Positions 9,101 through 25,563 of a stretch of DNA of 64,000 nt are shown piece by piece. Every line of letters begins with the position of its first letter. Position 1 is the stretch's first letter. The stretch comes from Candidatus Hydrogenedentales bacterium (lineage in GTDB: Bacteria; Hydrogenedentota; Hydrogenedentia; Hydrogenedentales; JAEUWI01), in NCBI GenBank assembly GCA_942492815.1, contig OW818658.1, positions 3,862,059-3,926,058 on the forward strand, in the 5' to 3' direction. The notes under the pieces are model-generated. The model was not told the origin of the DNA and searched no databases. It was given only the letters and a program-made list of their open reading frames with translations. The translations under genes and the position numbers were made by a program.

Positions 9101-10189
9101 GATAAAACCGGCCTTGGTCAGTGTGTGAGATTTTCCGGAGGAAGTGGTCACGGTGAGGGAGACGTCGTAGACGCCGTCGCTGGCGTAGCGGTGACTGGGG
9201 CTGGGCAGGGTGCTGCTCGTGCTGTCGCCAAAGTCCCAGAGCCATTCGGTGATGACGTCGGAACCGCCGGACGAGAGGTCGGTGAAATTGACGTTCAACG
9301 GTGCGGGCCCGGAGGTCGGGGAAGCGCTGAAATTCGCCTTGGGGAGTTCCTCGACCTCGATAAAGTTCAACTGGGAGGCGATGGGGCTCTGGCCCACGGC
9401 GGTGGTGACGGAAAGAGACACAGTATAGGCGCCGGCAGCCGTGTAGGTGTGCTGGGGGTTCTGGCGGGTATCGGAGGTGCCATCGCCAAAATCCCAGAAC
9501 CACTGGGTGATGGGCGAGGAGCCCGGATCGGAGGTATCGGTGAACTGCACGGCCAGGGGCGAGGCTCCCGCGCGTGGCGAGGCCGTAAAGGAGGCGGTGG
9601 CCCGTTCCTGCACGTTGATCAAATTGGCTTTGGTTTCCGTGTTGTCGCCGATTGCGGTGGTGACCTTGAGTTTCACGGTGTAGGTGCCGGGGTCTTCGTA
9701 GATGTGAACGGGGTTAACATCTTCACTGGTATTGCCGTCTCCGAAGTCCCACTCGTAGAGCGTAATCGGTGCGGCGCCCGCGATGGAGGCGTCGGTAAAG
9801 GTGACTTGGAGGGGGCCTTCGCCCGCCTGGGGCGAGGCGGTGAAATCGGCGTCGGGCAGTTTTCGAACGGTGATATAGTCGATCTTGGTCTCGGTATCGT
9901 TGCCGAGGCGGCTCGTGACCGTGAGAGTAACGCGGTAGACTCCGGGCGCGCTGTAGACGTGGCTTGGATTCTGGGCGGTGCTGCTGAGTCCGTCGCCGAA
10001 ATCCCAGAGCCAGTTGGTGAGGTCGGTGGAACCGGGCTGGGACTGATCGACGAAGAGAACCGTAAGGGGTGCGTTACCTTCGGTCGGGGTCGCCGTGAAC
10101 GCGGATTCGGGGCTCTCGAAGAGCGGACAGCCCATCAGCGTCACGGACAGGGCCAGACAAATAACCCCGGCTACCAGTTTCTCACGCAT
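6185..10189 (-). CDS. large surface lipoprotein with about 14 tandem PKD domains and a C-terminal SBBP-type beta-propeller
   Basis: Lipoprotein signal MREKLVAGVICLALSVTLMGC. Repeated PKD signature WDFGDG(T/S)xS...NPxHxY...PGxYxVxLTVT about every 90 aa. C-terminal FGGxGDDxAxAV...DGGxVxxG repeats typical of SBBP beta-propeller blades. Confidence 0.8.
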   Translation of the reverse strand: MREKLVAGVICLALSVTLMGCPLFESPESAFTATPTEGNAPLTVLFVDQSQPGSTDLTNWLWDFGDGLSSTAQNPSHVYSAPGVYRVTLTVTSRLGNDTETKIDYITVRKLPDADFTASPQAGEGPLQVTFTDASIAGAAPITLYEWDFGDGNTSEDVNPVHIYEDPGTYTVKLKVTTAIGDNTETKANLINVQERATASFTASPRAGASPLAVQFTDTSDPGSSPITQWFWDFGDGTSDTRQNPQHTYTAAGAYTVSLSVTTAVGQSPIASQLNFIEVEELPKANFSASPTSGPAPLNVNFTDLSSGGSDVITEWLWDFGDSTSSTLPSPSHRYASDGVYDVSLTVTTSSGKSHTLTKAGFITAQQSPDAAFSATPRNGEAPLTVQFTDLSDPGSAPITSWQWDFGDGSTSVDRNPFHSYTRPGRYTVTLGVSTAVGSDTATQVNYITVEQKPVAAFTATPTSGAAPLTVVFADQSTPGSSEITTWAWDFGDGTSSSQQNPSKTYNQPGVYTVKLTVTSAAGTGTITRANHITVRQLPSTDFTSNVTTGSAPLTVLFADESTSGSEALTGWQWDFGDGTTSGLQNPSKVYATPGIYTVSLTASSSVGSDTETKSAYLTVRPAVNFTASPTTGAGSLSVSFVDTTPVGSLNVTSRSWNFGDGSAASTEASPVHIYSEPGIYDVTLTLQTSLDGQTDARTKAGLIIVRPQPAFSANVVQGDGTLQVNFTDETELGSLDAIGVLWNFGDGTTSQTANPSHTYTEPGTYTVTLTVTTAAGSQTATQSNLIVVRPIPAFSANLTSGPPPLTTAFTNLTDLGGLTITGRLWDFGDGTTSEAASPIHAYTDPGNYDVTLTLTTSQGVVTTTVADYIQVAPVVAFTTDVSSGAAPLSVQFTDATDPGSLTITGYSWDFGDGTAASTDQNPFHTYTTGGSFDVSLTVTTAQGNRTFVDQDAIVATPIIKIVASVVDGKSDENGAVSFVDATDVGEATVLGRVWNFGDGSEASAEDSPVHAYDTPGAYDVGLDLLTSLGPLSGTVERLVEVPPAPTFTVDQSEGTAPLKVSFTDTTAMGTLSLVGRTWNYDDGTSDSTGSHTYEAPGTYDVTLQIATELGSARSSAITINVGINPLTAWFDGRESDTGHAWIPVPGGYMLVGTADTGGENGLDVILVATDAEAKALPGWPRYFGGAGDQQGLGLAATRDGGYVIVGESSVGDGPDSSALLLKVDGVGELLWAREFGGTGDDRANAVVELRGNGLALAGASSSPGSHGGFDALVLTTDALGENEILTWHGGPHDDEAVDIDESPDGSLVLTVDDISETEGRDYLLRLNPDLSVP

Positions 10190-10613: not shown

Positions 10614-11630
10614 ATGGTGCGTACAATTCGAAGAGCCGGTTGCGGGCTGTTGATTGCCCTTTGCTGCTGTCAGTGTGGCCGGGCTCCAGAGCCCGGTAAG
10701 ACAGCAGCCACCCTGCCTGAGGACGCACCCGCCGCAGCAGCACACACCGAACCCATTCTCCCCATTCCCGCGCCCCCCGATGTCGCGCCGGAGAAGCTGG
10801 AGCTGGGCAAGCAGCTTTTCCACGAGACGGCGCTTTCGGGCGCGTCGCGCAAGGTGAGTTGCGCCACGTGCCATGATCTGGAAAAGGGCGGCACGACGGG
10901 CAAGCCGCCCGCCGTGACCGGCGAGGCCGAGCCTTATGATATCCCTACGGTATTTAACGCCGCCCACCAGTTTGCTCATTTCTGGAATGGCCGCGCCCAA
11001 AGCCTGGAAGCGGTGATACAGGCGTCGATTCGGGCGGAGAATGTCATGGACGGATCGTGGGACGAGATCATTCCTGCGCTCGCGGAAAACCCGGACTACG
11101 TCGCCCGCTTTGAGCGAGTTTACCCGGAAGCTGGCCTTACGGAGTCGTCCGTTGAGGACGCCCTGACGAGTTACGTGCGCAGTCTGTCCACACCCAATTC
11201 CGCCTTTGACCGCTGGCTCGCGGGGGGCGAATTGACTGAGGAAGCCCGAGAAGGCTATGAACGCTTCAAGGAACTGGGGTGCGTCCGGTGCCATCAGGGC
11301 GCCGGGGTCGGCGGCAATCTCTTTGCGTCGTTCGGCTCGTATCTTGCAGCCCGGGAGCGCGTCAGCAACAGCGATCTCGGCCGATTCAATGTGACGAATG
11401 ACGAATCCCACCGCTATCAGTTTAAAGTTCCCGGTCTCCGCAATGTCGTGCTGACGGCACCCTATTTTCATGACGGTTCCGCCGCAAAATTGGAGGATGC
11501 GGTCCGCGCGATGGCCCAACATCAACTCGGGAAGACTCTTTCCGATGAAGAGGTGCGGTCGCTCGTTTCATTTCTGGAAACGTTGACCGGAAGCGCGCTC
11601 CTCGGTGCGACTGGGGGGACCCAGCCATGA
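10614..11630 (+). CDS. di-heme cytochrome c peroxidase (CCP/MauG family)
   Basis: Two heme-binding CxxCH motifs (CATCH and CVRCH) and the conserved PGLRNVVLTAPYFHDGS block. N-terminal signal/lipoprotein-like sequence. Confidence 0.85.
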   Translation: MVRTIRRAGCGLLIALCCCQCGRAPEPGKTAATLPEDAPAAAAHTEPILPIPAPPDVAPEKLELGKQLFHETALSGASRKVSCATCHDLEKGGTTGKPPAVTGEAEPYDIPTVFNAAHQFAHFWNGRAQSLEAVIQASIRAENVMDGSWDEIIPALAENPDYVARFERVYPEAGLTESSVEDALTSYVRSLSTPNSAFDRWLAGGELTEEAREGYERFKELGCVRCHQGAGVGGNLFASFGSYLAARERVSNSDLGRFNVTNDESHRYQFKVPGLRNVVLTAPYFHDGSAAKLEDAVRAMAQHQLGKTLSDEEVRSLVSFLETLTGSALLGATGGTQP

Positions 11631-12943
11631 AACGTCGACTCAGTCTTTATTACGGCGCGCTCCTCGTACTCCTGGGACTGACGCTGGGGGTCGTGGGCTT
11701 TGGCCTGGCGACCACGGCCCGGCCCTCGGGCCACGCCTACGAACAGGCTCTCCTCGATTTTGTCGATGCCGAACGAATCATGGACGCTGAACTGAGAAAG
11801 CTTGAGATTGGCGCGGGGAATCACTTCGACGGGCTCAAGGAAGCGGTACTCGCGGTGCGACGGGCGGAAGTGCCGTTGAGCACGATCCCCCGCTATCTCA
11901 GTTCCGCGGCCGCCTTCAACGAAGCCCGGCTGCAACTTGCCGTCATGGTTAACGAGCGGCTTGCACTGGTGGAGGAATTCAAGACCGGCCTCTCCGCCCT
12001 GCAGGTCAGTCTGGACGCGCTTCCAGAGAAGATCGAGGCGGCGCAACAGGAGCGTGTCGATGCGGGAAACTCCGGCGATATGCTGCTGGCGCGCGCGGCG
12101 GGGAATCTGGCGCGGCTGGTCAGTCACCCCGGTGACACAGTGGACGCTCAGCTTTCCAGCGAACTTTCCGCCCTCGCGGCGGAAGCGGGCGAGGAAGTGA
12201 ACGCGTCGTTCAAGCCCGGTCTGGCGGCCTTCGTGAAGCAGGGCGAAACGATTCGCGCGCGAAATAAAGCCCTGGATGAAATACTTGTCAAGCTGGCGGC
12301 GGCGCCCCTCTCCGGACATGCGGTCGATCTGGTCGAACTTTACGAGGCGGTCGAACTCAAGCACCGACAGCGCACGGCCTATATCCTGGGCGGTGTAACG
12401 GTCGTGCTGGTGCTGGGCCTGGCGGCCCTCTTCTTTGCCGGGCTGCGTCGCGCTCAGGTGCGGTTGGACAGTGCTCTGGCGGATCAGGCCGCTCTAAAGA
12501 GCGCGCTCAAAGAGGCGAAGGCACAGTCTGAAACGGTCAAGCGTGGTGAACGAGAACAATCGGCGCTGCTGGCGGAAGAACGGCATAACGCCCTTGTCCT
12601 CCATGCGTTTGACCTGATGGCCATTCTCTCGCGCCAGGAAAATTACATCCACGTGTCCCCCGCCTGTGAGGCCTTTTTCGGGCTGACCGATAAGGAGATG
12701 ATCGGCAAGAGCGTTTACGAGGGCATCCATGCCGACGATATCATCAAAGTTCAGGATTATCTGGCCCGCGCACAACGCGAGCTTCCCACAGAGCAGACGA
12801 TCCAGTACCGCGTGATGGACGCCTTCGGCAAGTGGCACCTCGTGGAGACCTTTGCTTCGAACCAGGCGAGTAATCCGGCGGTCCGGGGCATGGTGCTCAA
12901 CACGCGGCGTCTGGGCATGGCGCCCGATTCGAAGGCGCGGTGA
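11627..12943 (+). CDS. membrane sensor protein: two transmembrane helices flanking a periplasmic domain, then a cytoplasmic PAS domain; no kinase or other output domain
   Basis: TM1 LSLYYGALLVLLGLTLGVVGF and TM2 AYILGGVTVVLVLGLAALFFAGL. C-terminal PAS-like region (LHAFDLMAILSRQENYIHVSPACEAFFGLTDKEMIGKSVYEGIHADD...). Its ATG overlaps the CCP stop (ATGA), implying translational coupling. Confidence 0.65.
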   Translation: MKRRLSLYYGALLVLLGLTLGVVGFGLATTARPSGHAYEQALLDFVDAERIMDAELRKLEIGAGNHFDGLKEAVLAVRRAEVPLSTIPRYLSSAAAFNEARLQLAVMVNERLALVEEFKTGLSALQVSLDALPEKIEAAQQERVDAGNSGDMLLARAAGNLARLVSHPGDTVDAQLSSELSALAAEAGEEVNASFKPGLAAFVKQGETIRARNKALDEILVKLAAAPLSGHAVDLVELYEAVELKHRQRTAYILGGVTVVLVLGLAALFFAGLRRAQVRLDSALADQAALKSALKEAKAQSETVKRGEREQSALLAEERHNALVLHAFDLMAILSRQENYIHVSPACEAFFGLTDKEMIGKSVYEGIHADDIIKVQDYLARAQRELPTEQTIQYRVMDAFGKWHLVETFASNQASNPAVRGMVLNTRRLGMAPDSKAR

Positions 12944-12974
12944 TGGTGCGCGACGCAATGAGGAAGGTTTTGAC

Positions 12975-13643
12975 ATGAGTAATTCGGGCGATCCGTCCAA
13001 GCCCGTGGGCACGGGCAGCTATGTGGTCAAAGAAGACGACTGCATGTCGTCCATCGCCGAGGCCACGGGCCATTTCTGGCAGACCATCTGGGATGATCCG
13101 GCCAATGCAACGCTGAAGGAGATCAGGAAGGATCCGAACGTGCTGCTGCCCGGCGACAAGGTGACGGTCAAGCCGATCACGAAGAAGACGGTATCGAAGG
13201 CGACGAACGCGAGTTACCGCTTCCGCCGGAAGGGCGTCCCCGCCAAGCTGCATCTGCGACTCTTGAAGTATGGCGAGCCCCGGGCGAACGAGTCGTACCG
13301 TGTGGATATCGACGGCAAGCTCTCGAAGGGCGTGACCGACGGCCAGGGCTACGTGGACCTCTACATTCCGTGCAACGCGAAGAAGGGAAAGCTCTGGGTG
13401 GGCCCCCCCGAAGACGAGAAGATGTACACGCTCCAGCTCGGCCACACCCTGCCCGTGGCGACCGTCAAGGGTGTCAAGCAGCGCCTCCGAAATATTGGCA
13501 TGTATGGCGGGCTCATCGACGACGAACTAACCCTGGCCTACAAGGATGCCGTGCGCGCATTTCAGAAAGAAAACGCGCTCCCGGAAACGGGCGAGACCGA
13601 CGAAGCGACGCGCCAAAAACTGGTTGAAGTCCACCGTTCTTAA
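12975..13643 (+). CDS. LysM-like (phage tail protein X-like) N-terminal domain plus C-terminal peptidoglycan-binding (PG_binding_1-like) domain protein
   Basis: N-terminus YVVKEDDCMSSIAEATGHFWQTIWDDPANATLKEIRKDPNVLLPGDKVTV is a LysM/gpX-like fold. C-terminus LRNIGMYGGLIDDELTLAYKDAVRAFQKENALPETGETDEATRQKL matches the peptidoglycan-binding helical repeat. Shine-Dalgarno aggaagg lies 8 nt upstream of the ATG at 12975. Confidence 0.7.
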   Translation: MSNSGDPSKPVGTGSYVVKEDDCMSSIAEATGHFWQTIWDDPANATLKEIRKDPNVLLPGDKVTVKPITKKTVSKATNASYRFRRKGVPAKLHLRLLKYGEPRANESYRVDIDGKLSKGVTDGQGYVDLYIPCNAKKGKLWVGPPEDEKMYTLQLGHTLPVATVKGVKQRLRNIGMYGGLIDDELTLAYKDAVRAFQKENALPETGETDEATRQKLVEVHRS

Positions 13644-14241: not shown

Positions 14242-16380
14242 ATGGATAGCGGCCCCAACAGCCCGAACACCGACACCGGAACGCCCCCGTCAACACTCGA
14301 GGAAGCCGAGGAACTCGTCAATTTGACGGTTCCCGAAGATCCCGAAGAGCTTTTTGAAGAGATACTCGTCGATGGAACGCTGGACATCGATACTGTCCGG
14401 CGCGATGACAGTACCGTCGATCCGACCGGCGAGGGCACAACCCAATCCGTGGCGCGGGCGACGAGCGACGGAAGCAAGACGGCGTCCACGTTGGACGAGC
14501 CGTTGCCGAAGCTCCCTGTTGTGGATATCCACTGCCACATTCACGGCGTGAGTCTTTCCAAGACGAAGTCGGCCTTGAAGGACTTCAAGCAGCACGGCCT
14601 GTTTCACGGCAACGATCTGAAGACGCCGAAAAAACGCGAAGCATTCCAGAAATCGCTGAACGAGTATTACGAGAAGAAGGAAGAAAAATACAAGTCGCGG
14701 CTCAATCCGGCGCTGCAACTGGGGCACTGGAATTTCCTCGACGACCCGTGGGTCGCCAAGAAGATCATCACCAGCACGCAGAGCTTTCAGGACGCCACGG
14801 AGCGGCAGGACATCGGCAACCCGATTATCATCACGCCGATGTTGCTGGATTTCGGCTACACGCCCCTGGGCACCTCGGTCGCCAGCAAGGCGGCCAAGGT
14901 CAAGGGCTCGGGCGACAGCATGAACGAGACGAAGGCGCGCCAGGAGGAACTGGCGGATACGGGGATCTATTACTTCTCCAAATCGGCAAAGACGCAGCGC
15001 GACCACCGTTTCTTCACGCGGGACGATTCCATGTTCCGCCATCAGGTCGAGATTCTCCATATGATGGCGACGCTCTGGCCCGGCCAGATCATGCCCTTCT
15101 GCCCCTATGACCCGCGGCGGCCCAATTGTCTTGACGTGGTGAAGGCGGCCATGGATACGCAGGCCTATGTGGGCGTTAAGCTCTATGCTCGCTGCGGGTG
15201 GATGCCCGCGAACAACGCGGCGCTTCACGGCACGGCGGTCGGCAAGATCCTTGATGATCGGCTGGATGAGTTATACGCCTACGTGACGGCCAACGACATT
15301 CCGATTCTTAACCACACAAGCCCAACGGGGCATCCGCCGGAGGGTGCCCTGGTATTCCCCTGGCGCATGACGGCGGAGGCCACCGCCGATGATCGCGCGC
15401 CCGCGTCATCCGCCGCGCCTTCGAGTTATCCCCCGAGCAACTGGACCCAGCCGGATATGTTCGTAAAGGGCCGATCAAAGAAAGAGCGGTCCCTGGAGAA
15501 GATGAACTTTGAGCTGACGGGCTTTGGCTATTACTGCCTCTACGATCAGTTGACCACCTCGCCCTATAGTTGGGAGCCCGTACTGAAGAAATATCCCAAG
15601 CTCCGTCTCTGCTTCGCCCACTTCGGTTCCAAGCTGGGCGCCTATGTCCGCTACAACTTGAAGACCGGCGCCGCCGTGGCGGATTGCGACCTGCTGCTGC
15701 AAAAGAACCCCATGATATCCGGGGCCACAGGAGATCGCAGTTTCAAAGATTATTTCATGATGGGCGCAATCCGGAATCGCTACGACAAGAAAATAAAAGA
15801 CGACTTTGCGCAGGAGTCGGCGGAGAAATTGCTCGCGCCCGCGACGGAGTGGGACGACTGGCTGAACAAGTGGGCCGCGGCCTATCCCGATGATTGGAGC
15901 ACGCGGATCACGAAGCTGGTCACGGACTACGAGAATGTGTATACCGACATCTCGTTTATCACGGGGAACAGCTCGTCATTCAACGATATCGTGGGGCCGA
16001 TCTTTCAGGATGCGCTCGAACAGCGGAAGGGCGCGGGCAGACTCTTTGACAAGTGTATGATCGGCACGGACTGGTACATGACGGAAATGGCAAGCCTCAG
16101 TCCCGGCGGCTTCTGGCGGCTGGTGGAGAAGGCCTGCAAGATGGACAAAGCAACCTTCAGCCAGCTTCCCGAGCCGGAACGCGTCAAGCGCGCCAAGGTA
16201 TGGGATCTGTGGGCGACGAAGAATGCCCTCCGGTACTTGAACGTGAAGCCCCGTCTCGGCGGCACCGGCATGGACAAGCTGGTGAATGCCTACGGCTGCA
16301 CGGTTGACAAATTACCCCCCTGGTGGAAGACGCTGGAGAAATTCTACGACAAGCCCGAGAAGATCGAGCCGCCGAAGTGA
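14242..16380 (+). CDS. amidohydrolase-2 (TIM-barrel metal-dependent hydrolase) superfamily protein with about 100-aa acidic disordered N-terminal extension
   Basis: N-terminal metal ligands VVDIHCHIHG (HxH), later LNHTSP, CFAHFG (H-x-G) and MIGTDWYM (Asp of the GxDxP block). Acidic low-complexity N-terminus (EEAEELVNLTVPEDPEELFEEILVDG...). No signal peptide. Convergent with the T6SS operon. Confidence 0.7.
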   Translation: MDSGPNSPNTDTGTPPSTLEEAEELVNLTVPEDPEELFEEILVDGTLDIDTVRRDDSTVDPTGEGTTQSVARATSDGSKTASTLDEPLPKLPVVDIHCHIHGVSLSKTKSALKDFKQHGLFHGNDLKTPKKREAFQKSLNEYYEKKEEKYKSRLNPALQLGHWNFLDDPWVAKKIITSTQSFQDATERQDIGNPIIITPMLLDFGYTPLGTSVASKAAKVKGSGDSMNETKARQEELADTGIYYFSKSAKTQRDHRFFTRDDSMFRHQVEILHMMATLWPGQIMPFCPYDPRRPNCLDVVKAAMDTQAYVGVKLYARCGWMPANNAALHGTAVGKILDDRLDELYAYVTANDIPILNHTSPTGHPPEGALVFPWRMTAEATADDRAPASSAAPSSYPPSNWTQPDMFVKGRSKKERSLEKMNFELTGFGYYCLYDQLTTSPYSWEPVLKKYPKLRLCFAHFGSKLGAYVRYNLKTGAAVADCDLLLQKNPMISGATGDRSFKDYFMMGAIRNRYDKKIKDDFAQESAEKLLAPATEWDDWLNKWAAAYPDDWSTRITKLVTDYENVYTDISFITGNSSSFNDIVGPIFQDALEQRKGAGRLFDKCMIGTDWYMTEMASLSPGGFWRLVEKACKMDKATFSQLPEPERVKRAKVWDLWATKNALRYLNVKPRLGGTGMDKLVNAYGCTVDKLPPWWKTLEKFYDKPEKIEPPK

Positions 16381-16547: not shown

Positions 16548-16720
16548 ACCCTTGGTTTCTGGTGGCACTTCCTTATTCAGAATACGCTTTGTCGGACAGT
16601 CCCATTGAAATGCGTGGGACAGTCCTATGCTCAGACCCTCATCATCCGTGGATTGCCCCCCTTATTTCTGATGGCCCTTGTTATTCAGCGTATACGTTGT
16701 CGGACAGTCCCATCGGTTAT
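16548..16720. repeat. imperfect tandem duplication (about 115-bp unit) plus dispersed GGGACAGTCC motifs between convergent genes
   Basis: ttattcagaatacgctttgtcggacagtcccat and ttattcagcgtatacgttgtcggacagtcccat about 115 bp apart. gcgtgggacagtcct occurs at 16502 and 16611. gggaccgtc at 16386 and 16481. Confidence 0.5.
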
Positions 16721-17055
16721 ATTCTCGGTGTCGTCTGGACGGTGGATTGGGCCGTGATCTGACCGAGATCAGCGAGGGACTCGACGGGTTTCCAGGGGTC
16801 TTCCGTGTGCGTGGTGGCGCGCTGGTCGCGGACGTGGAGCTTGCCCGCGTCGTCCACCATGAAGAGTAAATCTTCGATTCGGATGGTCTTGTCGGCGCCG
16901 CAGAGGCCAATGGAGGCCGCCTCGAAGGTGTCCAGTTCCTCGTCCTTCACACCGAATCGCTCGTGAAGTATCTGGCGCGTCGTGCGGATTTTCTCCGCCA
17001 GGATTTCCTCCTGACGGGCCTCAAAGGCCTCCCTGGCCCGCTGTCTTAGGCCCAT
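16717..17055 (-). CDS. hypothetical protein (112 aa), last gene of the T6SS minus-strand operon
   Basis: ATG at 17055-17053 with Shine-Dalgarno AAAGGAATC 8 nt upstream. Protein MGLRQRAREAFEARQEEILAEKIRTTRQILHERFGVKDEELDTFEAASIGLCGADK... has no recognised domain. The longer ORF 16717..17304 is an in-frame upstream extension without support. Confidence 0.4.
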   Translation of the reverse strand: MGLRQRAREAFEARQEEILAEKIRTTRQILHERFGVKDEELDTFEAASIGLCGADKTIRIEDLLFMVDDAGKLHVRDQRATTHTEDPWKPVESLADLGQITAQSTVQTTPRI

Positions 17056-17080: not shown

Positions 17081-18226
17081 TTATGGCTTGAGCGTGGTTG
17101 TGCTTTGGGGACGGCCAAAGAGGGGCGGCGCGGAAACACCGGGCTCAACCTCTCGGGGCGCGCGCCGGGCGGGCCCGTAGTCGCGATGGAAAGGTTCCGA
17201 AGCCACGTTTGGATTCCCGATCTGATCGGTGGCGACCCCGGCTGGAATGGACAGGGTAACGGGGCCCCGGTCCTGGCGCATGTCGATGATGAAGGTCTTG
17301 CCATCCGGCTCTGCGGAGAAATTGATCATCTTCCCATAGGCCACGGCGACATCGCCCCGCTCGAATCCCTGCACGGGCTCGCTGAACTCCGCGCGCACGC
17401 GAATGAGGCGGGCATTGCTTGCGCCGGGTGTCTCGAAGGAAGTGAGGGCGACTTCGGGGCCCGCGCTGTCCACCACAATCGAAAAGGCGGGCGAGGCTTC
17501 GTTGCCATTGCCGACGGCGTCGTACGCCACGTCTTCCGGGATCTGGAAAGCGATGGTGCCGTCCTGTGCGGGGGTAACGGAGAAGAGATAGATGGCGTCA
17601 CCATCGGCGCCCGCCTTGCGCTTGAGCTCGGCGTTTTCCATGGAAAGACTTTCGTCCTTCAACCCGAAGACGGGCTCGGAGAAGCCGAGCGCGATTTCCA
17701 TGGTGGCGTTGTTAACCACGCCAGCGGCCTCGCTGTGGACGAGACAGGTCGGGCGGGAACCATCGAAGACGACAACGCCGTCTTCGGCTGTGGAGGGGAC
17801 ATTGAGATTACCAAAGAGGTCGGCGCACAGGCCATCGGGAACGCTGACCTCGATGGCGCCGTCGTGCTCGGCGGAGAGGATGGCGACGCGATAGGTGTCG
17901 CGTGCGCCCTCGACGGTGTAGCGCAGCCCGGAGGCTGTGCCCGACATCACAATACCCGGCGCATTGGCCCCGGTGGGAAAATCCACCACGGGCTCGTCGA
18001 TCTTGATGTCGAAGTAGATGGGAAACTGATTAGTCGGATCGGGTTGGTCCGGAGCCTGCCGCACAACAATCTTCGGGCGGTCGTACTGGTTCAGAATCGC
18101 CGGGTTAGAGAGACGTCGATCATCCTTCTTTCGTTCCGAGCGCGTCTCGACGACGGTTACCGGTCCGGTCGGCCCCGGCTTACTCGTCGCTCCTGCGGGG
18201 GATCCAGGCCCGGATCGGTTTTTTTT
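17081..18226 (-). CDS. Ig-like repeat protein encoded in the -1 frame of tssM; probable C-terminal extension of TssM via frameshift/slippage at a poly-A(10) run (or homopolymer sequencing error)
   Basis: Frame is open from the TAA at 18227-18229 (inside the A10 run 18219-18228) down to the stop at 17081. It contains only a GTG (18064) with no ATG and a weak Shine-Dalgarno. Protein has three repeats of an Ig-like motif (VSVPDGLCADLFGNLNVPS / IAFQIPEDVAYDAVGNGNEAS / LSIPAGVATDQIGNPNVAS). Confidence 0.4.
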   Translation of the reverse strand, partial: KKNRSGPGSPAGATSKPGPTGPVTVVETRSERKKDDRRLSNPAILNQYDRPKIVVRQAPDQPDPTNQFPIYFDIKIDEPVVDFPTGANAPGIVMSGTASGLRYTVEGARDTYRVAILSAEHDGAIEVSVPDGLCADLFGNLNVPSTAEDGVVVFDGSRPTCLVHSEAAGVVNNATMEIALGFSEPVFGLKDESLSMENAELKRKAGADGDAIYLFSVTPAQDGTIAFQIPEDVAYDAVGNGNEASPAFSIVVDSAGPEVALTSFETPGASNARLIRVRAEFSEPVQGFERGDVAVAYGKMINFSAEPDGKTFIIDMRQDRGPVTLSIPAGVATDQIGNPNVASEPFHRDYGPARRAPREVEPGVSAPPLFGRPQSTTTLKP

Positions 18227-21200
18227 TTAATCTTCTTGCCGCCATAGCCCGGTCCCGTGCTCTCGGTGTAGGGTTCGGCGACCGCATCGCGACTCGCGGC
18301 CGGGGCCGAGGGCGCACCGATAATCGGAGGCTCGGGCGCGGCACCGTTCACGGGTTCGCGGGGCGTGGTAAAGGTCACTTCGGTGGTATAGAGCGGCCGC
18401 TCCGGTGCGGGCACGATCGCAGGCGGGCGCTTGATGGGCTCGGTGCGTACCGCGGGCATGGCGGGCTGCGGCGCGGGGGCCGGCGCGACGGGGGCCGGGG
18501 CAGGCGCGGGGAGCGCCTGCGGGAGGGGGCGCGTCATGACGGGCTGGGACTGGGGTGCCGGCGCGATTTCGCCGGGAAGGGTGTAGTCTGGTGCGGTGAC
18601 CTCGACGGCGGGCGCGTGGGCAATGTCCTGTTCGGGTTGCGGCGCGGCAGGCATTTCAGCCGGTACGGCTTCGGTCACCTCTCCCCCGCGAACCGGAGTG
18701 CTTGGGTTGTCCAGGGTAAACACGCGGGGCGATTCGGCCGCAGGCTTGTAGCTGTAGGCACCGTTGGGCATGGGAGCCGATCCGGTGGAGGACGGTGCGG
18801 CGATTGGCGCAGATTCAGGCGCGGGCAACGGCGTCACTTCCGGTGCCGGGGCCGGCGCAGGCGTGGACGGATCACCCGACCCCGTAATGAGGACTTCCTT
18901 GATCTTGTCGCTGATCTGAACGGATGTGGCGTTGGTCTGTACGGGTTCAGGGATCTCCGCTTCGCGAACCAAGGGCAGCAGGGGTGCTTCGGGATTGACG
19001 AATTGTCCACCTTCGGCGTCTTCGGGGTAGGACTCGCCCAGGGAGCGAGGCATGCGGCGAAGGCTGGGCCAATTGTAGGCCGAAGGCCAGCCCTTGAGAT
19101 CGGGGATCGGCTTGTTGAACTTGAAACCGAGCCAGTAGTAATACTCGCTGTCTTTGTGCTCGGCATTGTCCACCACGCGGAAGGGCACGGCGCAGGTCAT
19201 TTTGTCCTCAAGGACCACGGAATCACCCATGTGGAGGACGACGATGGGCAGCCAATCCATCTCCAGCCCCCCCACGCCGCTCGGGCGGGCGAAGCTGTTC
19301 ACACCGGGATTAAGATCCTCGGAGGTGTAGTAGAAGTGGAGGGCGAGCTTGTTGGACACGGGGGCCAGCGGATAGGTCTTGGCCGCCTCGCCCACCACGT
19401 AGGTCGTGGGTTCGGTGTTGAAGGCTTCGCCGTTGACGCGCATGTAGCGGTAGACCCAGGGGGCCGCGCCATAGACCTTGCTGGTGGGCATGGGCTCGGG
19501 GAAGCGCGGCGGGCGCTTCTCCTGCATTTCGCGCGGCAGAATCACCAGCTCGCAGGTCAGAGGCGTGTCGCCGCCGATAAAATCCATCACGGCCACGATT
19601 TGGTCGAACCATTCGCGCTCATACTCCGTGCGAATGACCTTGTCGCCCTGGAGGCGATCAATTTCCTTGTCCACGTCGGGCCAGCCGGTTCGCTCACCCG
19701 TCATCAGGGATTCTGCCTTTTCAGGCTTGGGCTGCTGCTTGATATGGCGCACGAGTTCCACGGCTTCGTCGAATTGCTCCGGCGTCAGGGGCGGCGTGGC
19801 GGTGTCGTTGATAAGGGGGAAGCCCCGATAGCGTGTGGCCAGATTGACGAGGTAGTAGCGGGACAGGTGCTCGCCCTCGTCGGCCAACAGACGAACGGCC
19901 TGGGTACAGAGGCTGCTCCAGAAGGCGAAGTTGGCCTTGTTCACACTGTTGTCGAGGAGCGAGAGGTAACCGCTCTTGAAGGCGTCCGCCTTCATGACAA
20001 GAAGATTGTTCACCACGTCGCGGTCGATCTTCTCGATGGCCTTCCATGCGTTGAGAATACGAAGGCACTCCGCGTCGAAGTCCTCACCCAGGCCCTTGAG
20101 CTTGAGGGTGAGGTCGAGGTGGGCGTCGGTCTGGCCCGGGTGGGTGTCGGGCACAATATCCACAGCATAAAGCGCGGTCTCGTAGAGCATGCGCAGCTTA
20201 TGGTTGACGTTGTACACCTCCAGATTGTTCAGCTCGGCGTGAAATTCCTTCCACGTGGCGTACTGGACCATTTCGGTGTTCTGGTCCACCATGCGCGACC
20301 AGTAGTTCACATACTCGGTGATGTAGTTGGTGAAGACCTGGTTCTTCTCCTTGAAACTGCGCTGGAGCCGGTCGATATCGGGCAGGGCGTCTTTGCCGAG
20401 CTTTTCCTGGCCGAGAATCTCCTTCATGTGGGACCAAAGCGTCAGAAGGTCGTAGACCACTTCGGTGTTGAAGCCGTCGTCGAACTGCTGCATTTCGCCG
20501 GTGGGCGTGAGGGGGATTTCGGGCTTCTCCAACCACTGGGCCTCGACGCGTGAGGCCACAAGACGGGCGAAGTCGGAGGTGTTGACCGGGAGCGCTTCCA
20601 CAATCTCGGCTACGACTTTGAAGCGCTGCTGGCGGTAGATCAGGGCCAGCATAGCCTCGGCCGCCTCACGACCGCTGTTAAAGCTGTCGGAGTTCGTGTC
20701 GAAATCGGCGATGTTGCGCACACTCTCGTCGAAGGCCTTCTGGAGCTCTTCGAGATCGAGGAGGTAGTCGAAGGGATCGTAAACATCCTCGCCCACCACA
20801 TAGTCCGACTCCTGAAGGAAGCCATAGACGTGGTTGCGCAACTGGTAGCCGCGCATGTCCTGGAAATCTGTCTTGGCGAGAAATTCGCGGTCGGCGCGGA
20901 GCGCGTCGAAGTCGGCGAGAAACTTTTCGGCCGACTGGGCCACGAGGGCATCGGTCGAGGTCTTGTCCGCGGCGAGGCGGTTCTTCACGTCTTGAATGTG
21001 CAGGCCCGTTTCGTCCTCTTTGATGGGCACGACCTTGTCGAGCTCCTGCGTGAGGATTCGATAGTCCTGATTTACCTTGTCTTGAACTTTTTCTCGTTCG
21101 TCCTCGCAGAGCTTTTTTATATCAACTTCGCGATCGGTGAAGAGGCGAGCGATGACGTCATCCAGCGCTTTGCGCTTCACGGTGAGCTTTTCCACGTCTT

Positions 21201-23451
21201 CTCGCCATGATGCGAGGATGACATCGATCTCGTGAACACTGTTGGGGCTTCCACCTTCCTGGGCGTTCTTCCAGAGGAGGGATTCCGCGTCACGGAAATC
21301 GGTCAAGGCCGTGAGCAACGCGCGAAGGTCGGCAAAGGCCGCGCCTTCGGAGACGTAGGTGTCAATGTGCTTCTTGAACTGGGCCGTACCGCTGTCGACC
21401 GCCTCATGGAGCCGCTCTTTTGCGCCCGCCTCAAAGAAAATTCTCGGCGGCCAAGCCTGGGATGTGGGCGGGTCGTAGAGGTCTTTGACGTATTCATTGT
21501 AGAACTTGTCGTGCTCCGCGTACTGGGCTTTATCCTCGACAGCATAGGCCAGGAAATTGTTCAGCTCGACCTTGCGCCCCTGAGAGCCGAGGTCGGGGGC
21601 GAAGCCGTCCTCCGTCATGGCCTCGATGCGCAATAGTTGGCCAAGGGCCAGGGTGGCTTCGTCGCGCCAGACGGGCTCGTCCTTGATGATGCGATCCTGT
21701 GCCGCTACGGCGAGGGGCGCCACGTAGCGATACTCGAAGATGCTGCGGTAGGCATCGAGCATGTCGGTGCGGAGGCGGCGATTGACGAGATCGAAGGGCT
21801 TGAAAACCCAGGGCGTGTTGACTTCCTGAACCCAGTGGGTTTCCATGACCTCGGGCAACTTGGCCATGAGAACGCCGGAAGCGTACTCCTCGGGCAGCTT
21901 GAGTCCCGCCAGGTCCACATTGAGGTCGCCATTGTACTCATAGTCCACGCCGCTGCCGGGGGTGACGATTGCGTCGCTCTTGGCCAGCCAGGCGTTGACC
22001 ACGTTCCAGTTTTGGCGCATCTGTTCCATGTCATTGCGCCACTGGTTGGACTCCCACATCATGTAGGCAAAGAGGCACATGAGGAGGCCGAGGCAGATCA
22101 GTACGAGGCGGGCCCGGGAGCGCTTGCGCTGGTAGCGCGGATCCTGTTTCCACGTAACCAGCCCGCCCTCGCAGAAGACCTTGTCGTTCAGCATTTCCTT
22201 GAGAAAATAGCTGTCTTCGGTGTGGCGCGTTTCGGCGGCGGGCAATTCCGACAGGGGCTTCGACAGGGCTCTGGCCAGCGAGGGATCAAGCTCGGTGTCG
22301 CGCTGGATGGCCGAGGTGTAGTAGGCGCCGCGGAGGAAAAAGGTCGCGCAGTACCAGGAGTCCGGTTCGAAAATACGTTCGAGATAGGTGCCAAGCCGAC
22401 GGGCGGTCTGCTGAAAACTCCGGGGAAACTCGTAGAGGTGGTTCACCTGTACGCGGCGCTTGTAGGCCAGGCTCTTGGACTCGATGGAATATTGGAGCAG
22501 GGAATCGCGACGGTGCCGGAGGCGGTTGAACACGCCTTCCATATCGTTCCGAAACTTGTCCGGGCCGAAGGGTGTTTCCAGGGTATCGGGATTGGACCAG
22601 CCGAAGATCTGATCGCGGTTGCCACCTTCTTTCAGGTCGGAGAAGTACTCCAGAAAGCCGCAGAGGCGATCGCTCTTGGTAACCATGACGAAGACGGGCA
22701 CCTGGGTACCCAGGGCGCGATGAACGTTTTCAAAATGCTCCACGAGGCGCGCGGACTTGGTATTCACGTCCTCGTCGGAATCGGCCAGCAACGTTTCGGC
22801 GGAGATGGCGAGGATGATGCCGTTGAGCGGGCTCGCGGGACGAAAATCGGCGATGTGCTTGAGTAGGAGCTTCCACGCACGAGCCTCGGAGGCACCGCCC
22901 CGCCCAAAAAAGTGAGCGCCGGGCAGATCAAGGAGCACGGCCTTGTTGGTGATCCACCAGTCGAGGATCTGGGTGCCGCCCACGCCCTGGGTGGTGTCGG
23001 TGAGGCCTGCGGGGAAGCCGATGCCGCTGCGGCGGATGGCCTCGGACTTGCCGCAGCCTTTCTCCCCCACCACCAGATAGAGGGGCAGCTTGTAGGGATC
23101 TTTGCGGAAGCTGGCGAGATCGGCCACGCCCTTGTCGAACTTGCGGGCAAGCTCACGGCGGAATTCGTCGTCGGAGATGGAAGGGACTTCTTCTTCCGGC
23201 ATCGCTCCGTCGGTCGGGACTTCGGCGGCGGCTTTCTTCGCCCGCCAGCGCCGCCAGTTCTTCACACAAAAGTAGATGAGGCTGGCGATTGCAGCGATAA
23301 TGGCCAAAATCAAGAGGGGCTTGCGAAGCGGCTCTGGAAACCACGAGAATGCATCCGTGACCAATCCGAAAATCGCCATTACCGGGATGATCAGATATTG
23401 CCAATCCCCGATCTCTTCCATGAAGCCGTATACTTTGCTAATCGGATTCAC
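18157..23451 (-). CDS. tssM: type VI secretion system membrane subunit TssM (IcmF family)
   Basis: Two N-terminal transmembrane helices, cytoplasmic P-loop NTPase (VVGEKGCGKSE Walker A, VLLDLPG Walker B), third transmembrane helix (RLVLICLGLLMCLFAYMMW), long periplasmic IcmF-related domain, Pro/Ala-rich C-terminal region. Immediately downstream of tssL. Confidence 0.9.
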   Translation of the reverse strand: MNPISKVYGFMEEIGDWQYLIIPVMAIFGLVTDAFSWFPEPLRKPLLILAIIAAIASLIYFCVKNWRRWRAKKAAAEVPTDGAMPEEEVPSISDDEFRRELARKFDKGVADLASFRKDPYKLPLYLVVGEKGCGKSEAIRRSGIGFPAGLTDTTQGVGGTQILDWWITNKAVLLDLPGAHFFGRGGASEARAWKLLLKHIADFRPASPLNGIILAISAETLLADSDEDVNTKSARLVEHFENVHRALGTQVPVFVMVTKSDRLCGFLEYFSDLKEGGNRDQIFGWSNPDTLETPFGPDKFRNDMEGVFNRLRHRRDSLLQYSIESKSLAYKRRVQVNHLYEFPRSFQQTARRLGTYLERIFEPDSWYCATFFLRGAYYTSAIQRDTELDPSLARALSKPLSELPAAETRHTEDSYFLKEMLNDKVFCEGGLVTWKQDPRYQRKRSRARLVLICLGLLMCLFAYMMWESNQWRNDMEQMRQNWNVVNAWLAKSDAIVTPGSGVDYEYNGDLNVDLAGLKLPEEYASGVLMAKLPEVMETHWVQEVNTPWVFKPFDLVNRRLRTDMLDAYRSIFEYRYVAPLAVAAQDRIIKDEPVWRDEATLALGQLLRIEAMTEDGFAPDLGSQGRKVELNNFLAYAVEDKAQYAEHDKFYNEYVKDLYDPPTSQAWPPRIFFEAGAKERLHEAVDSGTAQFKKHIDTYVSEGAAFADLRALLTALTDFRDAESLLWKNAQEGGSPNSVHEIDVILASWREDVEKLTVKRKALDDVIARLFTDREVDIKKLCEDEREKVQDKVNQDYRILTQELDKVVPIKEDETGLHIQDVKNRLAADKTSTDALVAQSAEKFLADFDALRADREFLAKTDFQDMRGYQLRNHVYGFLQESDYVVGEDVYDPFDYLLDLEELQKAFDESVRNIADFDTNSDSFNSGREAAEAMLALIYRQQRFKVVAEIVEALPVNTSDFARLVASRVEAQWLEKPEIPLTPTGEMQQFDDGFNTEVVYDLLTLWSHMKEILGQEKLGKDALPDIDRLQRSFKEKNQVFTNYITEYVNYWSRMVDQNTEMVQYATWKEFHAELNNLEVYNVNHKLRMLYETALYAVDIVPDTHPGQTDAHLDLTLKLKGLGEDFDAECLRILNAWKAIEKIDRDVVNNLLVMKADAFKSGYLSLLDNSVNKANFAFWSSLCTQAVRLLADEGEHLSRYYLVNLATRYRGFPLINDTATPPLTPEQFDEAVELVRHIKQQPKPEKAESLMTGERTGWPDVDKEIDRLQGDKVIRTEYEREWFDQIVAVMDFIGGDTPLTCELVILPREMQEKRPPRFPEPMPTSKVYGAAPWVYRYMRVNGEAFNTEPTTYVVGEAAKTYPLAPVSNKLALHFYYTSEDLNPGVNSFARPSGVGGLEMDWLPIVVLHMGDSVVLEDKMTCAVPFRVVDNAEHKDSEYYYWLGFKFNKPIPDLKGWPSAYNWPSLRRMPRSLGESYPEDAEGGQFVNPEAPLLPLVREAEIPEPVQTNATSVQISDKIKEVLITGSGDPSTPAPAPAPEVTPLPAPESAPIAAPSSTGSAPMPNGAYSYKPAAESPRVFTLDNPSTPVRGGEVTEAVPAEMPAAPQPEQDIAHAPAVEVTAPDYTLPGEIAPAPQSQPVMTRPLPQALPAPAPAPVAPAPAPQPAMPAVRTEPIKRPPAIVPAPERPLYTTEVTFTTPREPVNGAAPEPPIIGAPSAPAASRDAVAEPYTESTGPGYGGKKIKKKTDPGLDPPQERRVSRGRPDR

Positions 23452-23457
23452 GCGCGG

Positions 23458-24183
23458 TTACTCCTGCACTACCGCGGTGGCGGGTTTGAGCATCTTGGCG
23501 GACTCGCCATCGGCGAACTCGGTAATGCTGTCCAGGGTGCGACGCAATTCTCCGGAGCTGGAGTAGTAAAGGTAAACGTTGGTCCCCAGGACGGCCAGAA
23601 TCGCCGCGATGAGGGCCCAGCGCACGTGCTTGTAGCGCTTCAAGGGGCGTGTGGCCAGGGGCTGTTCGTCGATGTGCTCGTAGGCCGTGGGGGTCAACTG
23701 CGCGGAGAGCTCGAAGCGATCGCCGAAGGCCTTCGCGTCCATGTCGCTGTGCAACTGGCGGATGTATTTCCAGTCGTCGCTGTAGCAGCCGGTAAAGCCG
23801 AGGCGGAGGCATTCGCGGAACACGGTGAGCTGCTGGAGGGCGACCTCCGTGTTCTGCGCCAGGGTCTGCTCCAGCAGATCGAAAAACTGCTCGTCACCGG
23901 CGAGTTCCTGTTCGTCGAAGGCCAGCTCCACCCATTCCTGTGCGATGTTCAGGTCGCTTTCCTTGATCATGAAATCGACATAAAAAATGAGAATCAGATT
24001 GATGGTGCGGTCGTACTGGTAGGCCAGTGAAGGGTGGGCCTCCGCCTTGATGCGGATGTCGGCGAAGATGCCGATGATCTCGCGCCGCACCTGCTCGACG
24101 TCAAACTCCGTCTTGTGCTCCGCCGCGCGGGTAAGGCAACCCACGTAGAGGAAAAGGGGCTCGGTCAGTTGCACCAGGTTCAT
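23458..24183 (-). CDS. tssL: type VI secretion system protein TssL (DotU family), C-terminal single transmembrane anchor
   Basis: DotU-like cytoplasmic domain (MNLVQLTEPLFLYVGCL...IIGIFADIRIKAE...) and one C-terminal transmembrane helix VRWALIAAILAVLGTNVYLYY. Position between tssK and tssM. Confidence 0.8.
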   Translation of the reverse strand: MNLVQLTEPLFLYVGCLTRAAEHKTEFDVEQVRREIIGIFADIRIKAEAHPSLAYQYDRTINLILIFYVDFMIKESDLNIAQEWVELAFDEQELAGDEQFFDLLEQTLAQNTEVALQQLTVFRECLRLGFTGCYSDDWKYIRQLHSDMDAKAFGDRFELSAQLTPTAYEHIDEQPLATRPLKRYKHVRWALIAAILAVLGTNVYLYYSSSGELRRTLDSITEFADGESAKMLKPATAVVQE

Positions 24184-24186
24184 GGC

Positions 24187-25563
24187 CTACTCCCCCACGT
24201 CGCTGTAGGTGGTGTAGAGGGTGAACTTGTAGTCCACGGGCTCCGACACGGTGAAGCGAATGGCCATGGTGTTTTCCACGATGATGCGGCGCCAGAGGGC
24301 GCGGTTGTCTTCGGGGTCGATACGGAAATAGTGGAGGCCGGGCTTCGCGGGGAGATCCAGGGGCACTTCGCGCTCTTCGCGCAGGGTCAGGCCGCGCACG
24401 CGCTGGTGAATGTTGCTCTTGGCCATGGCCTTGAAGCGGTCCTGTGCCTCGACGAGCTTGACGAGGGTCCGGGGATCCTCCTCGGTCTCCACCGCGAGAA
24501 AGCAGACGGAAGCTTCGGTGAGATTGACGACGGTAAGCTCGGCGACGTAGATTTCATCTTCCTCGCGGAATTCGACCCGGCGGAATTTCTGGTTGGCGAT
24601 GAGGGCGAGCAACTCGCGGATCTTGTCGCTCAACTCGCGGAACACGACAGCGGGCCGGTCGTGGTCGTAGGCGGCCACTTCCATGGCGTCGTAGCCCGGC
24701 ACGAGGGTGGCCAGTTCGCCGAGCAGGTCGCGCAACTCCAGATACATGTCAAAGGGTGTGATGCCGGGTGCCTTGATGAGGGTGGACAGGCGGCCGCTGA
24801 ACTTGTTGAGGGTCTGGAGGAAGAAAATGTGCTCAGACTGAAACTTCGACTCGCGGGAGGTCTCGCCCCGGGTACCGCCCCGGGAGACGCGGGTCACGAG
24901 ATCGCGACGGTTGGCATCGACCTGGTTCGAGAGATCGCGAACGATGGCCATCAGCGGTGCGTAGCCATGGAGCAGTAGACACGGTGGAATAAAAAGGGGA
25001 TCGAGACTCGGCAGGCCCGCGCTATCGGCGGTGGACCTGGTGATCCGCACGAGGGGGAGCACTTCCAGGCCGCCGATGTCGTCGGTGCTGAGGAGCAGGC
25101 GCGCATTGATGCGGCGCACGAGCATGGGGTGGGAATGGACCCCGGTATTCTCGTCGGGCCGCTCGATTTCATTGAGTTTGTAGATGCGGCGGCTCTTCCA
25201 GCCCTCGTTGCCCTCGGCGGTAACGACGTTTGCGCCGTTGGGGTCCCAGAGCGGAACGCCTATCATGACGGTGACGGATTCCGCGCCCGAGTCAAAGACA
25301 TTCTGCAGGTTGAGCGGGGGCACATCCGCGCTGGAGGGATAGTCGACCTCCGTTCCGCTGGGCATGACCACGCGGAGCTGCTTGAACTGGACGAGTAGAT
25401 TGCGGAGGGCGTCCTCGGAGAGTTCGGATTCGATGACGCCGTAGGGATAGGTAAAGCGCAGACGCCGCTCGGAGCGGATCTGGGTGATGATGTTCTGTTG
25501 CATCTGCTGCAGGTGATGGGGCTGGAGGAAGAGCCCTTCATGCCAATGGATATGCTGCGTCAT
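24187..25563 (-). CDS. tssK: type VI secretion system baseplate subunit TssK
   Basis: Canonical N-terminus MTQHIHWHEGLFLQPHHLQQ (TssK/VasE signature). Size 458 aa. Synteny with tssJ-like and tssL. Confidence 0.9.
   Translation of the reverse strand: MTQHIHWHEGLFLQPHHLQQMQQNIITQIRSERRLRFTYPYGVIESELSEDALRNLLVQFKQLRVVMPSGTEVDYPSSADVPPLNLQNVFDSGAESVTVMIGVPLWDPNGANVVTAEGNEGWKSRRIYKLNEIERPDENTGVHSHPMLVRRINARLLLSTDDIGGLEVLPLVRITRSTADSAGLPSLDPLFIPPCLLLHGYAPLMAIVRDLSNQVDANRRDLVTRVSRGGTRGETSRESKFQSEHIFFLQTLNKFSGRLSTLIKAPGITPFDMYLELRDLLGELATLVPGYDAMEVAAYDHDRPAVVFRELSDKIRELLALIANQKFRRVEFREEDEIYVAELTVVNLTEASVCFLAVETEEDPRTLVKLVEAQDRFKAMAKSNIHQRVRGLTLREEREVPLDLPAKPGLHYFRIDPEDNRALWRRIIVENTMAIRFTVSEPVDYKFTLYTTYSDVGE

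Follow-up and report, generated by a model that had tools for sequence, protein, structure and literature searches.

Where does the tssM gene of an uncultivated Hydrogenedentota bacterium end, and is the reading frame that overlaps its 3' end a gene in its own right? The question is raised by a stretch of 64,000 nucleotides (nt) from a Candidatus Hydrogenedentales bacterium (GenBank assembly GCA_942492815.1, contig OW818658.1, positions 3,862,059 to 3,926,058), hereafter called the window, whose minus strand carries a type VI secretion system (T6SS) gene cluster. Near the 3' end of tssM lies a run of ten adenines (A10), and the -1 frame that is open from within this run encodes immunoglobulin (Ig)-like repeats. 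An earlier note on this DNA offered two explanations: either a sequencing indel hides a contiguous TssM of 2130 amino acids (aa), or slippage at the run gives a subpopulation of TssM an Ig-like extension. Our comparison with related loci points to the second. A trans-frame TssM-Ig fusion, whose length we correct to ~2123 aa, is probably made beside the 1764-aa TssM. The slippage proposal finds strong comparative support in the run, the frame relation, the open frame, the coding signature and the lack of a signal peptide in the Ig proteins.

The run stands out from its surroundings. On the coding strand the 3' end of tssM reads GGC AAG AAG ATT AAA AAA AAA ACC GAT, and the A10 is followed by 20 sense codons and the tssM stop TAA at 18157-18159, 59 nt past the run. 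As first described, the -1 frame stays open from within the run to position 17081; it comprises 381 sense codons and a stop (Table 1). The earlier note had also called a 10-nt homopolymer exceptional in this DNA, and rightly so, as no other A/T homopolymer of at least 9 nt occurs in the 64 kb; the GC content is 61% over the whole window, not the 65% then assumed, and 62-71% near the run. The sole other A8 of the window lies in the vgrG-tssG intergenic region (29506-29513, minus strand). At the 5' edge of the run, T18229 and the first two A form a -1-frame TAA (18227-18229).

The arrangement is shared by all related loci in our comparison. We collected 16 orthologous loci (L001-L016) from NCBI metagenome-assembled genomes (MAGs) that bear the label Candidatus Hydrogenedentota or Hydrogenedentales, and from assemblies of JGI, ENA and Logan; after removal of near-duplicates, these loci and the window make up 14 lineages. 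Among them, L001 is contig JBIJDL010000238.1 with a Lake Mendota sample behind it, L006 derives from SRR27901409 and L014 from JGI 3300050210. Most loci are contigs encoding homologous proteins, and a pattern scan of metagenome contigs contributed at least one, a near-duplicate of L002. The closest locus, L001 from a Candidatus Hydrogenedentales MAG, encodes an Ig protein 97% identical to that of the window, and the divergence extends down to ~50% Ig-protein identity, with a median pairwise nucleotide identity of 0.59 just upstream of the run. Close homologs fall into 20 clusters for the Ig open reading frame (ORF), all separate proteins of 304-451 aa, and into 8 clusters for TssM (1427-1762 aa). 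One long A-run is present at the homologous position of tssM in 14/14 lineages, as A10 in ten and A9 in four. The tssM stop follows 44-63 nt past the run in every lineage, and two clades, A and B, each have their own conserved position of this stop. The Ig ORF always lies in the -1 frame, and no stop interrupts this frame between the run and the Ig gene. In L001-L013, with loci of up to 17 kb, the tssM run is the sole run of at least 8 nt in each.

The run is conserved as nucleotides rather than as codons. In the 14-lineage alignment of 507 columns, no other invariant block is as long as the A9 core (9 nt), and the next in length measures 3 nt. All three Lys codons of the run are AAA in every lineage, against an AAA share of 26% among the Lys codons of these tssM genes. 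The base immediately 5' of the run (18229 in the window, minus strand) is T in 14/14 lineages and belongs to seven different codons, namely ATT, AGT, GCT, GTT, CGT, GAT and, in L006, GTA with the T in second position; third-position T amounts to 12.5% overall in these genes. This T looks like part of the signal. With the A that follow, it forms a TAA, which belongs to the -1 frame in 13 lineages and to the +1 frame in L006. The L006 run is shifted by 1 nt against the codon phase and still consists of 10 A, and the A9 and A10 lineages differ by substitution, with the frame preserved and without indels. Because run length is kept while codon phase shifts, and against the codon bias, selection acts on the homopolymer itself, in a length-dependent and not phase-dependent manner. 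On these alignments, we regard the A9-10 run as most likely a conserved, selected recoding site.

The run also keeps constant company. From about residue 1441 the window TssM continues into a Pro/Ala-rich extension of ~320 aa (21% Pro, 14% Ala), and the more distant TssM homologs of L017 and L018 end at about residue 1445, without Pro-rich extension, A-run or Ig gene. The Pro-rich linker, the run and the Ig gene co-occur phylogenetically.

An assembly or sequencing indel would make all of this an artefact, with a true A11 and one contiguous TssM of ~2123 aa. Homopolymers are error-prone on some platforms, and the -1 frame does open exactly in the run. Yet the out-of-frame layout, with A9 or A10 and the tssM stop in place, is common to 16 independently assembled loci from different projects, and the 0-frame tail and its stop are conserved with a coding signature of their own: between the run and the tssM stop, frame 0 has a synonymous fraction of 0.34-0.38, against 0.16-0.19 for the two alternative frames. 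The signature of the tail and the recurrence in 16 assemblies therefore exclude the contiguous protein, and we give an indel practically no chance. Phase variation at the DNA level, in which replication would turn A10 into A11 and so switch the fusion on or off in subpopulations, is very improbable. DNA polymerase, too, slips on poly-A, and phase variation typically affects T6SS and surface structures (PMC3711429); nevertheless, the in-frame (ON) state is found in 0/16 loci, 0/20 Ig clusters and 0/8 TssM clusters, and the difference between A9 and A10 is a frame-preserving substitution, although consensus assemblies could hide minority variants. Separately, a plus-strand "terminator" at 18201-18228 (hairpin GATCCAGGCCCGGATC plus T10) was considered as the reason for run conservation and rejected as probably incidental, because the hairpin is not conserved, matches are just as numerous as shuffling predicts and the site is buried 1.8 kb deep in the convergent operon.

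The -1 frame carries the marks of translation upstream of any start codon. The distance from the run to a conserved motif at the N-terminal end of the Ig module, DRRLSNPAILNQYDRP, is 116, 119, 122 or 125 nt, always 2 mod 3, and the indels in between are multiples of three. Over this stretch the 14 lineages have no -1-frame stop in 510 codons, compared with 24 stops in the +1 frame and ~10 expected from the -1-frame stop density inside tssM (Poisson P ~5e-5 with the lineages treated as independent). In 8/14 lineages (the window, L001, L006, L007, L011, L012, L014 and L015), no ATG, GTG or TTG occurs upstream of the motif, which for the window was established by script. Inspection of the window by eye also finds no CTG, ATT, ATC or ATA from the run up to the motif; ATT and CTG first appear within the motif. 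In L014 the first called start is located 216 nt past the tssM stop. In the ~50 nt past the tssM stop of the seven start-less clade-A lineages, the synonymous fraction is 0.40 in the -1 frame versus 0.07 and 0.17, and the clade-A differences in the same ~50 nt are distributed 81/119/203 over the -1-frame codon positions. The same periodicity (10/11/34) is seen in clade B within the 18-nt "spacer" between the tssM stop and the position of a candidate ATG. A conserved coding stretch without a start implies that the -1 frame is entered upstream, and the run is the obvious entry point.

If instead two independent genes are present, TssM would end at its 0-frame stop, the Ig protein would arise by translational coupling, reinitiation or a non-canonical start and act as a cytoplasmic T6SS accessory or secreted cargo, and the run would be kept for another reason, for instance as a poly-Lys translational pause or an mRNA signal. 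Gene callers do annotate a separate protein of 304-451 aa in all cases, T6SS cargo needs no signal peptide, and the 0-frame tail is itself under selection. Candidate starts exist as well. In clade B, four lineages share a conserved site, 17 nt past the tssM stop, that is occupied by an ATG or GTG, and two candidates that are not conserved occur in L009 (a TAATG overlap) and L010 (a GTG); by eye, and not by a tool scan, the sequence upstream of the three clade-B ATG starts shows no Shine-Dalgarno motif. In L009, whose Ig protein is 84% identical to that of the window, the tssM stop overlaps the -1-frame ATG at L009 positions 2116-2120 in a classical translational-coupling layout, which is absent from the window and most relatives. 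The earlier note had named, as the pattern of separate genes, a stop at the same place in orthologs and a well-initiated gene behind it; the shared stop is found throughout, but the ATG or GTG 17 nt past it in only 4/14 lineages.

What tells against separate genes is that more than half of the lineages offer no canonical start upstream of the motif, that the stretch preceding any start nevertheless changes in the manner of -1-frame coding sequence, and that the GTGs available would cut the first beta-strand of the Ig module and lack a Shine-Dalgarno motif. The GTG of the window illustrates the last point. It is the first ATG, GTG or TTG of the -1 frame, which has no N-terminal ATG, although internal ATGs are present. 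The weak Shine-Dalgarno motif ascribed to it is not there, although a GGAG-like one precedes most T6SS genes of the window. In the AlphaFold2 (AF2) model this codon falls within the first beta-strand of Ig domain 1 (I53-Q57), and it is not kept in orthologs. The GTG is an implausible start because it has no Shine-Dalgarno motif and sits inside beta-strand A of Ig domain 1. Independent genes would, in addition, leave the invariant -1 relation, the always-open -1 frame and the fixed choice of AAA over AAG unexplained. We consider this alternative improbable as a general account; in the six lineages with candidate starts, independent or coupled initiation may contribute.

The sequence entered by the proposed frameshift encodes a well-defined module. 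The -1 ORF matches the Pfam family Big_12 (PF19078; E = 7.7e-18, 65.1 bits against a cutoff of 27), and the AF2 model, built with 21 sequences, predicts ~36 disordered residues, a short conserved motif, three beta-sandwiches with a predicted local distance difference test (pLDDT) score of ~90 and a disordered tail. Foldseek searches with this model return only generic tandem-Ig proteins (titin, filamin and invasin). Three D..GN.N..S motifs are present, one per Ig-like domain, and the three Ig-like repeats of the first description are confirmed. In the C-terminal tail of the Ig orthologs (P0001-P0020), A366 and P367 of an A-P-P-L (APPL) motif are invariant and P368 and L369 are at least 90% conserved; the motif may be a short linear interaction motif or contact peptide. 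A fourth Ig-like domain precedes the APPL tail in L002-L004, L007, L008, L011 and L015 (Ig genes of 414-451 aa), and the length of the extension thus varies among lineages by whole-domain steps. Hydropathy analysis detects no signal peptide or hydrophobic N-terminus in the 20 orthologous Ig proteins.

In the mechanism that we propose for the fusion, most transcripts or ribosomes would stay in frame 0 and yield the 1764-aa TssM with its short basic tail, and a fraction would shift to the -1 frame at the run. The likeliest cause would be slippage of RNA polymerase, which adds one A (A10 to A11) or removes two A in the mRNA; the protein would be identical if, instead, the ribosome slipped by -1 or slid on A_AAA_AAA. 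The shifted product would read ...GGKKIKKK and then NRSGPGSP..., and would comprise the disordered linker of ~35 residues, the conserved motif, three Big_12 Ig-like domains and the APPL tail. The conservation pattern fits a short isoform with a selected basic tail and a long isoform that uses the same stretch as a linker.

Several observations favor transcriptional slippage. First, 9-10 A are kept where 7 would suffice for programmed ribosomal frameshifting (PRF). Second, the L006 run keeps its length and not its codon phase. Third, no conserved RNA structure or covariation is found around the run: the RNAalifold consensus reaches -1.57 kcal/mol without covariation, the window has a z score of -0.29, and Rfam gives no match. 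Fourth, A runs longer than 7 are established length-dependent sites of transcriptional realignment, with efficiencies of 10%, 40% and 63% for 7, 9 and 11 A (PMC3711429), and include the A11 of Citrobacter rodentium tssM1 (PMC4256274). The site has the sequence features by which realignment sites are recognized, i.e., a run of at least ~8-9 nt, nucleotide-level conservation irrespective of codon phase and an open ORF in the shifted frame without a conserved initiation signal.

A ribosomal origin of the fusion, by -1 PRF on A_AAA_AAA or by sliding on poly-A, competes with slippage only as to mechanism and appears rather unlikely to us. An in-phase A_AAA_AAA heptamer is available in every lineage, including those with A9; A_AAA_AAA and A_AAA_AAG are recognized PRF motifs (PMC3711429), E. 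coli ribosomes slide on iterated AAA codons (PMC4363877), and a weak 5-bp hairpin starts 2 nt past the run in the window. That hairpin, however, is not kept in other lineages, no downstream hairpin or pseudoknot is conserved or supported by covariation, and no conserved upstream Shine-Dalgarno-like stimulator is visible by eye. The selected length of 9-10 A exceeds the 7 of the heptamer and is maintained despite the phase shift in L006. The analogy with -1 PRF in dnaX and IS911 drawn in the earlier note is therefore less apt than transcriptional slippage, since no stimulatory structure is conserved.

Some considerations weigh against a fusion produced by slippage. The whole case is a comparative sequence analysis of metagenome assemblies, from which we infer that shifting takes place at all, how and how often it does so, the topology and what the Ig tail is for. 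Shared ancestry among the lineages makes the probabilities quoted above optimistic. Between the run and the tssM stop, amino-acid constraint is confined to frame 0; the -1 frame there is merely open, which is compatible with a disordered linker and is not positive evidence for translation. Six of the 14 lineages possess a possible start upstream of the motif. No hard-wired TssM-Big_12 fusion, i.e., the contiguous Ig-like tail that the earlier note had suggested to look for in orthologs, was found in either protein search (Ig matches of up to 667 aa; no TssM match with PF19078). Finally, the slippage lengths and efficiencies come from PMC3711429, and the RNA polymerase of Hydrogenedentota may not share them.

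The TssM to which the Ig module would be attached is divergent. Its N-terminal part matches IcmF-related_N (PF14331; E = 3e-47), and TIGR03348 matches over residues 41-487 only, with a score under the cutoff. Transmembrane (TM) segments are predicted from hydropathy at residues 19-38, 41-66 and 445-468, the canonical positions, and a Walker A motif, GEKGCGKS, can be seen by eye in the translation. PF06761 and PF06744, the canonical periplasmic IcmF/IcmF_C families, of which PF06744 binds TssJ, have no Pfam match in the window TssM or its clade, whereas proteobacterial matches carry both. No TssJ lipoprotein was detected among the neighboring ORFs scanned with Pfam and NCBIfam, which does not prove its absence. 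Lacking both families and a detectable TssJ, this TssM is therefore a divergent one, and the gene content suggests a T6SS membrane complex without TssJ. N-terminal-only TssM homologs also occur in MAGs labelled Verrucomicrobia and Planctomycetota.

In canonical TssM, the part that follows the third TM segment is periplasmic, and by analogy the C-terminus of this TssM would be so too. Fusion would then bring the Ig domains, which have no export signal of their own, into the periplasm on the tip of a Pro-rich linker of ~320 aa. How often slippage occurs would determine the proportions of short and long subunits in the T6SS membrane complex, and the substoichiometric long isoform could span the envelope or contact the outer membrane or peptidoglycan in a system where no TssJ was detected. 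Taken together, these elements could describe a membrane complex of two isoforms, whose stoichiometry is hard-coded by RNA polymerase slippage at T-A(9-10) and whose minority long form, with Pro-rich spacer, three or four Ig-like domains and APPL tail, functionally replaces TssJ as a connector to the outer membrane or peptidoglycan. We put this joint reading forward only tentatively and consider it more doubtful than the fusion. If it is true, recoding is an ancient, obligatory part of T6SS assembly and not the "rescue" of a broken gene.

Table 1. Features of the tssM-Ig locus, in coordinates of the window; peptides are given in the remarks or feature names.
Feature	Positions	Strand	Remarks
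tssK	24187-25563	minus	T6SS_VasE; upstream of tssL
tssL	23458-24183	minus	DotU; directly upstream of tssM
tssM	18157-23451	minus	0-frame product of 1764 aa
A10 slippery run	18219-18228	minus	candidate site of RNA polymerase slippage or -1 ribosomal shift
0-frame tail of the putative short TssM isoform	18157-18218	minus	TDPGLDPPQERRVSRGRPDR then TAA; overlaps the -1-frame linker
-1-frame ORF, putative Ig-like extension	17081-18226	minus	381 sense codons and stop at 17081-17083
Linker	18122-18226	minus	residues 1-35 of the -1 ORF; readable solely after a frameshift; predicted disordered (pLDDT 33-35)
Conserved N-terminal motif DRRLSNPAILNQYDRP	18074-18121	minus	from ortholog alignment; upstream of the first canonical start
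GTG, first ATG/GTG/TTG in the -1 frame	18062-18064	minus	residue V55; unlikely to be the true start
Ig-like domain 1	17762-18073	minus	residues 52-155; ADLFGNLNVPS; pLDDT >90; tandem-Ig structure matches
Ig-like domain 2, Big_12	17462-17761	minus	residues 156-255; YDAVGNGNEAS
Ig-like domain 3	17177-17461	minus	residues 256-350; TDQIGNPNVAS
C-terminal tail with A-P-P-L motif, and stop	17081-17176	minus	predicted disordered
-1-frame peptides of the window upstream of any start codon			SGPGSPAGATSKPGPTGPVTVVETR, LSNPAILNQYDRPK
Candidate frameshift junction			...GYGGKKIKKKNR
Conserved 112-aa ORF	16717-17055	minus	immediately downstream of the Ig ORF; own ATG and Shine-Dalgarno motif

The T6SS cluster of the window is a complete, T6SS-i-like one and comprises tssA, tssB, tssC, hcp, tssE, tssF, tssG, vgrG, two small ORFs, tssK, tssL, tssM, the Ig ORF and the 112-aa ORF, with the same T6SS gene order in related loci. 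An AAA+ ATPase of the ClpB/ClpA/ClpV family lies farther off; its best match is ClpB, under every curated cutoff. An ORF of 112-113 aa without any family match follows the Ig gene in the window, L006-L012 and L014, i.e., in every locus that reaches far enough. Divergent from tssA on the plus strand, a 4199-aa ORF (37613-50212) contains cadherin-like, Big_9, DUF11, EF-hand and ASH/HYDIN-type Ig domains; the predicted product is a giant Ca-binding adhesin-like protein beside the T6SS cluster. The genes flanking the cluster (6185-10189, minus; 10614-13643, plus; 14242-16380, plus) encode a 13-repeat PKD protein (1334 aa), a CCP_MauG di-haem peroxidase, a DAHL/PAS sensor, a PG_binding_1 protein and an Amidohydro_2-like protein (712 aa). 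This set mostly recurs in L006, L008 and L012, with the PKD protein confirmed in L006 alone, and is partial in L007 and L010-L011; the downstream genes of L014 differ. A PG_binding_1 protein also adjoins the distant T6SS of L017. A literature search for T6SS in Hydrogenedentes found no paper.

The conservation of the layout at ~50% protein identity argues that the two TssM length variants are themselves a selected trait. If the fusion is made, the locus shows a route by which a domain without an export signal reaches the periplasm, namely by being appended to a membrane protein, and it suggests a T6SS built without TssJ within an uncultivated phylum. It would also expose a systematic annotation error, since every public assembly annotates the Ig genes from arbitrary start codons that truncate them. 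The locus is a clean natural test case for distinguishing transcriptional from translational slippage, because the signal includes an invariant 5' T that still lacks an explanation.

Recoding that appends an overlapping reading frame has counterparts in unrelated systems. The tail assembly chaperones G/GT of phages and orfA-orfB of IS3 and IS911 use ribosomal -1 PRF on heptamers, usually with stimulatory structures. They resemble the tssM locus in the minority extension into an overlapping -1 ORF that has no efficient start of its own and in a fixed short-to-long ratio, and they differ in the unrelated proteins and in the ribosomal nature of the shift, in place of the transcriptional one favored here. 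Closer in function, transcriptional slippage is said to have been described by Penno et al. in 2005 and 2006 (cited in PMC3711429) in the Shigella flexneri type III secretion system genes mxiE, mxiA, spa13 and spa33. There, too, slippage on A/T runs fuses overlapping ORFs of a secretion system, although both the system and the proteins are different, and we know of no conservation of those sites beyond close relatives.

The dnaX gene offers the nearest parallel in the site itself. Thermus thermophilus dnaX undergoes transcriptional slippage on A9, other dnaX genes are of the A10 type, and E. coli dnaX relies on -1 PRF at A_AAA_AAG (PMC3711429). As in dnaX, the tssM run consists of 9-10 A inside a GC-rich gene, is conserved at the nucleotide level and would supply a multi-subunit machine with two products at a fixed ratio. 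The shifted product of dnaX (gamma) is the shorter one, whereas that of tssM would be longer and gain folded domains, and the Shine-Dalgarno and hairpin stimulators of E. coli dnaX are absent here.

The closest precedent is tssM itself, so that the novelty claimed in the earlier note for a regulated C-terminal extension of TssM was overstated. In C. rodentium, the A11 of tssM1 causes 20-25% transcriptional frameshifting and gives two length variants, both of which are required in the proper ratio, and tssM3 of Yersinia pseudotuberculosis is subject to transcriptional frameshifting as well (Gueguen, Wills, Atkins & Cascales 2014, PMC4256274). The same authors regarded such sites as "not common" in tssM and the C. 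rodentium gene as "prematurely interrupted". Both cases concern the same gene family as ours and place a poly-A run shortly before the stop (28 nt there, 44-63 nt here), with two TssM variants of different length sharing the N-terminus, which were demonstrated by experiment in those species and are predicted from sequence in ours. The hosts, in contrast, are Enterobacterales there and Hydrogenedentota here, and the positions of the runs are non-homologous. The +1-frame shift of Citrobacter and Yersinia restores the canonical TssJ-binding C-terminal domain, whereas the -1-frame shift proposed here (+1 A or -2 A) would add a Big_12 module after a Pro-rich linker to a TssM that has no canonical C-terminal domain, at a site conserved across a deep clade. 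What is new relative to known tssM recoding, on the sequence comparison, is thus the phylum, the position, the frame, the Ig module and the deep-clade conservation; if true, ours adds a third example of poly-A recoding in tssM, with conservation that reaches far deeper than in the other two.

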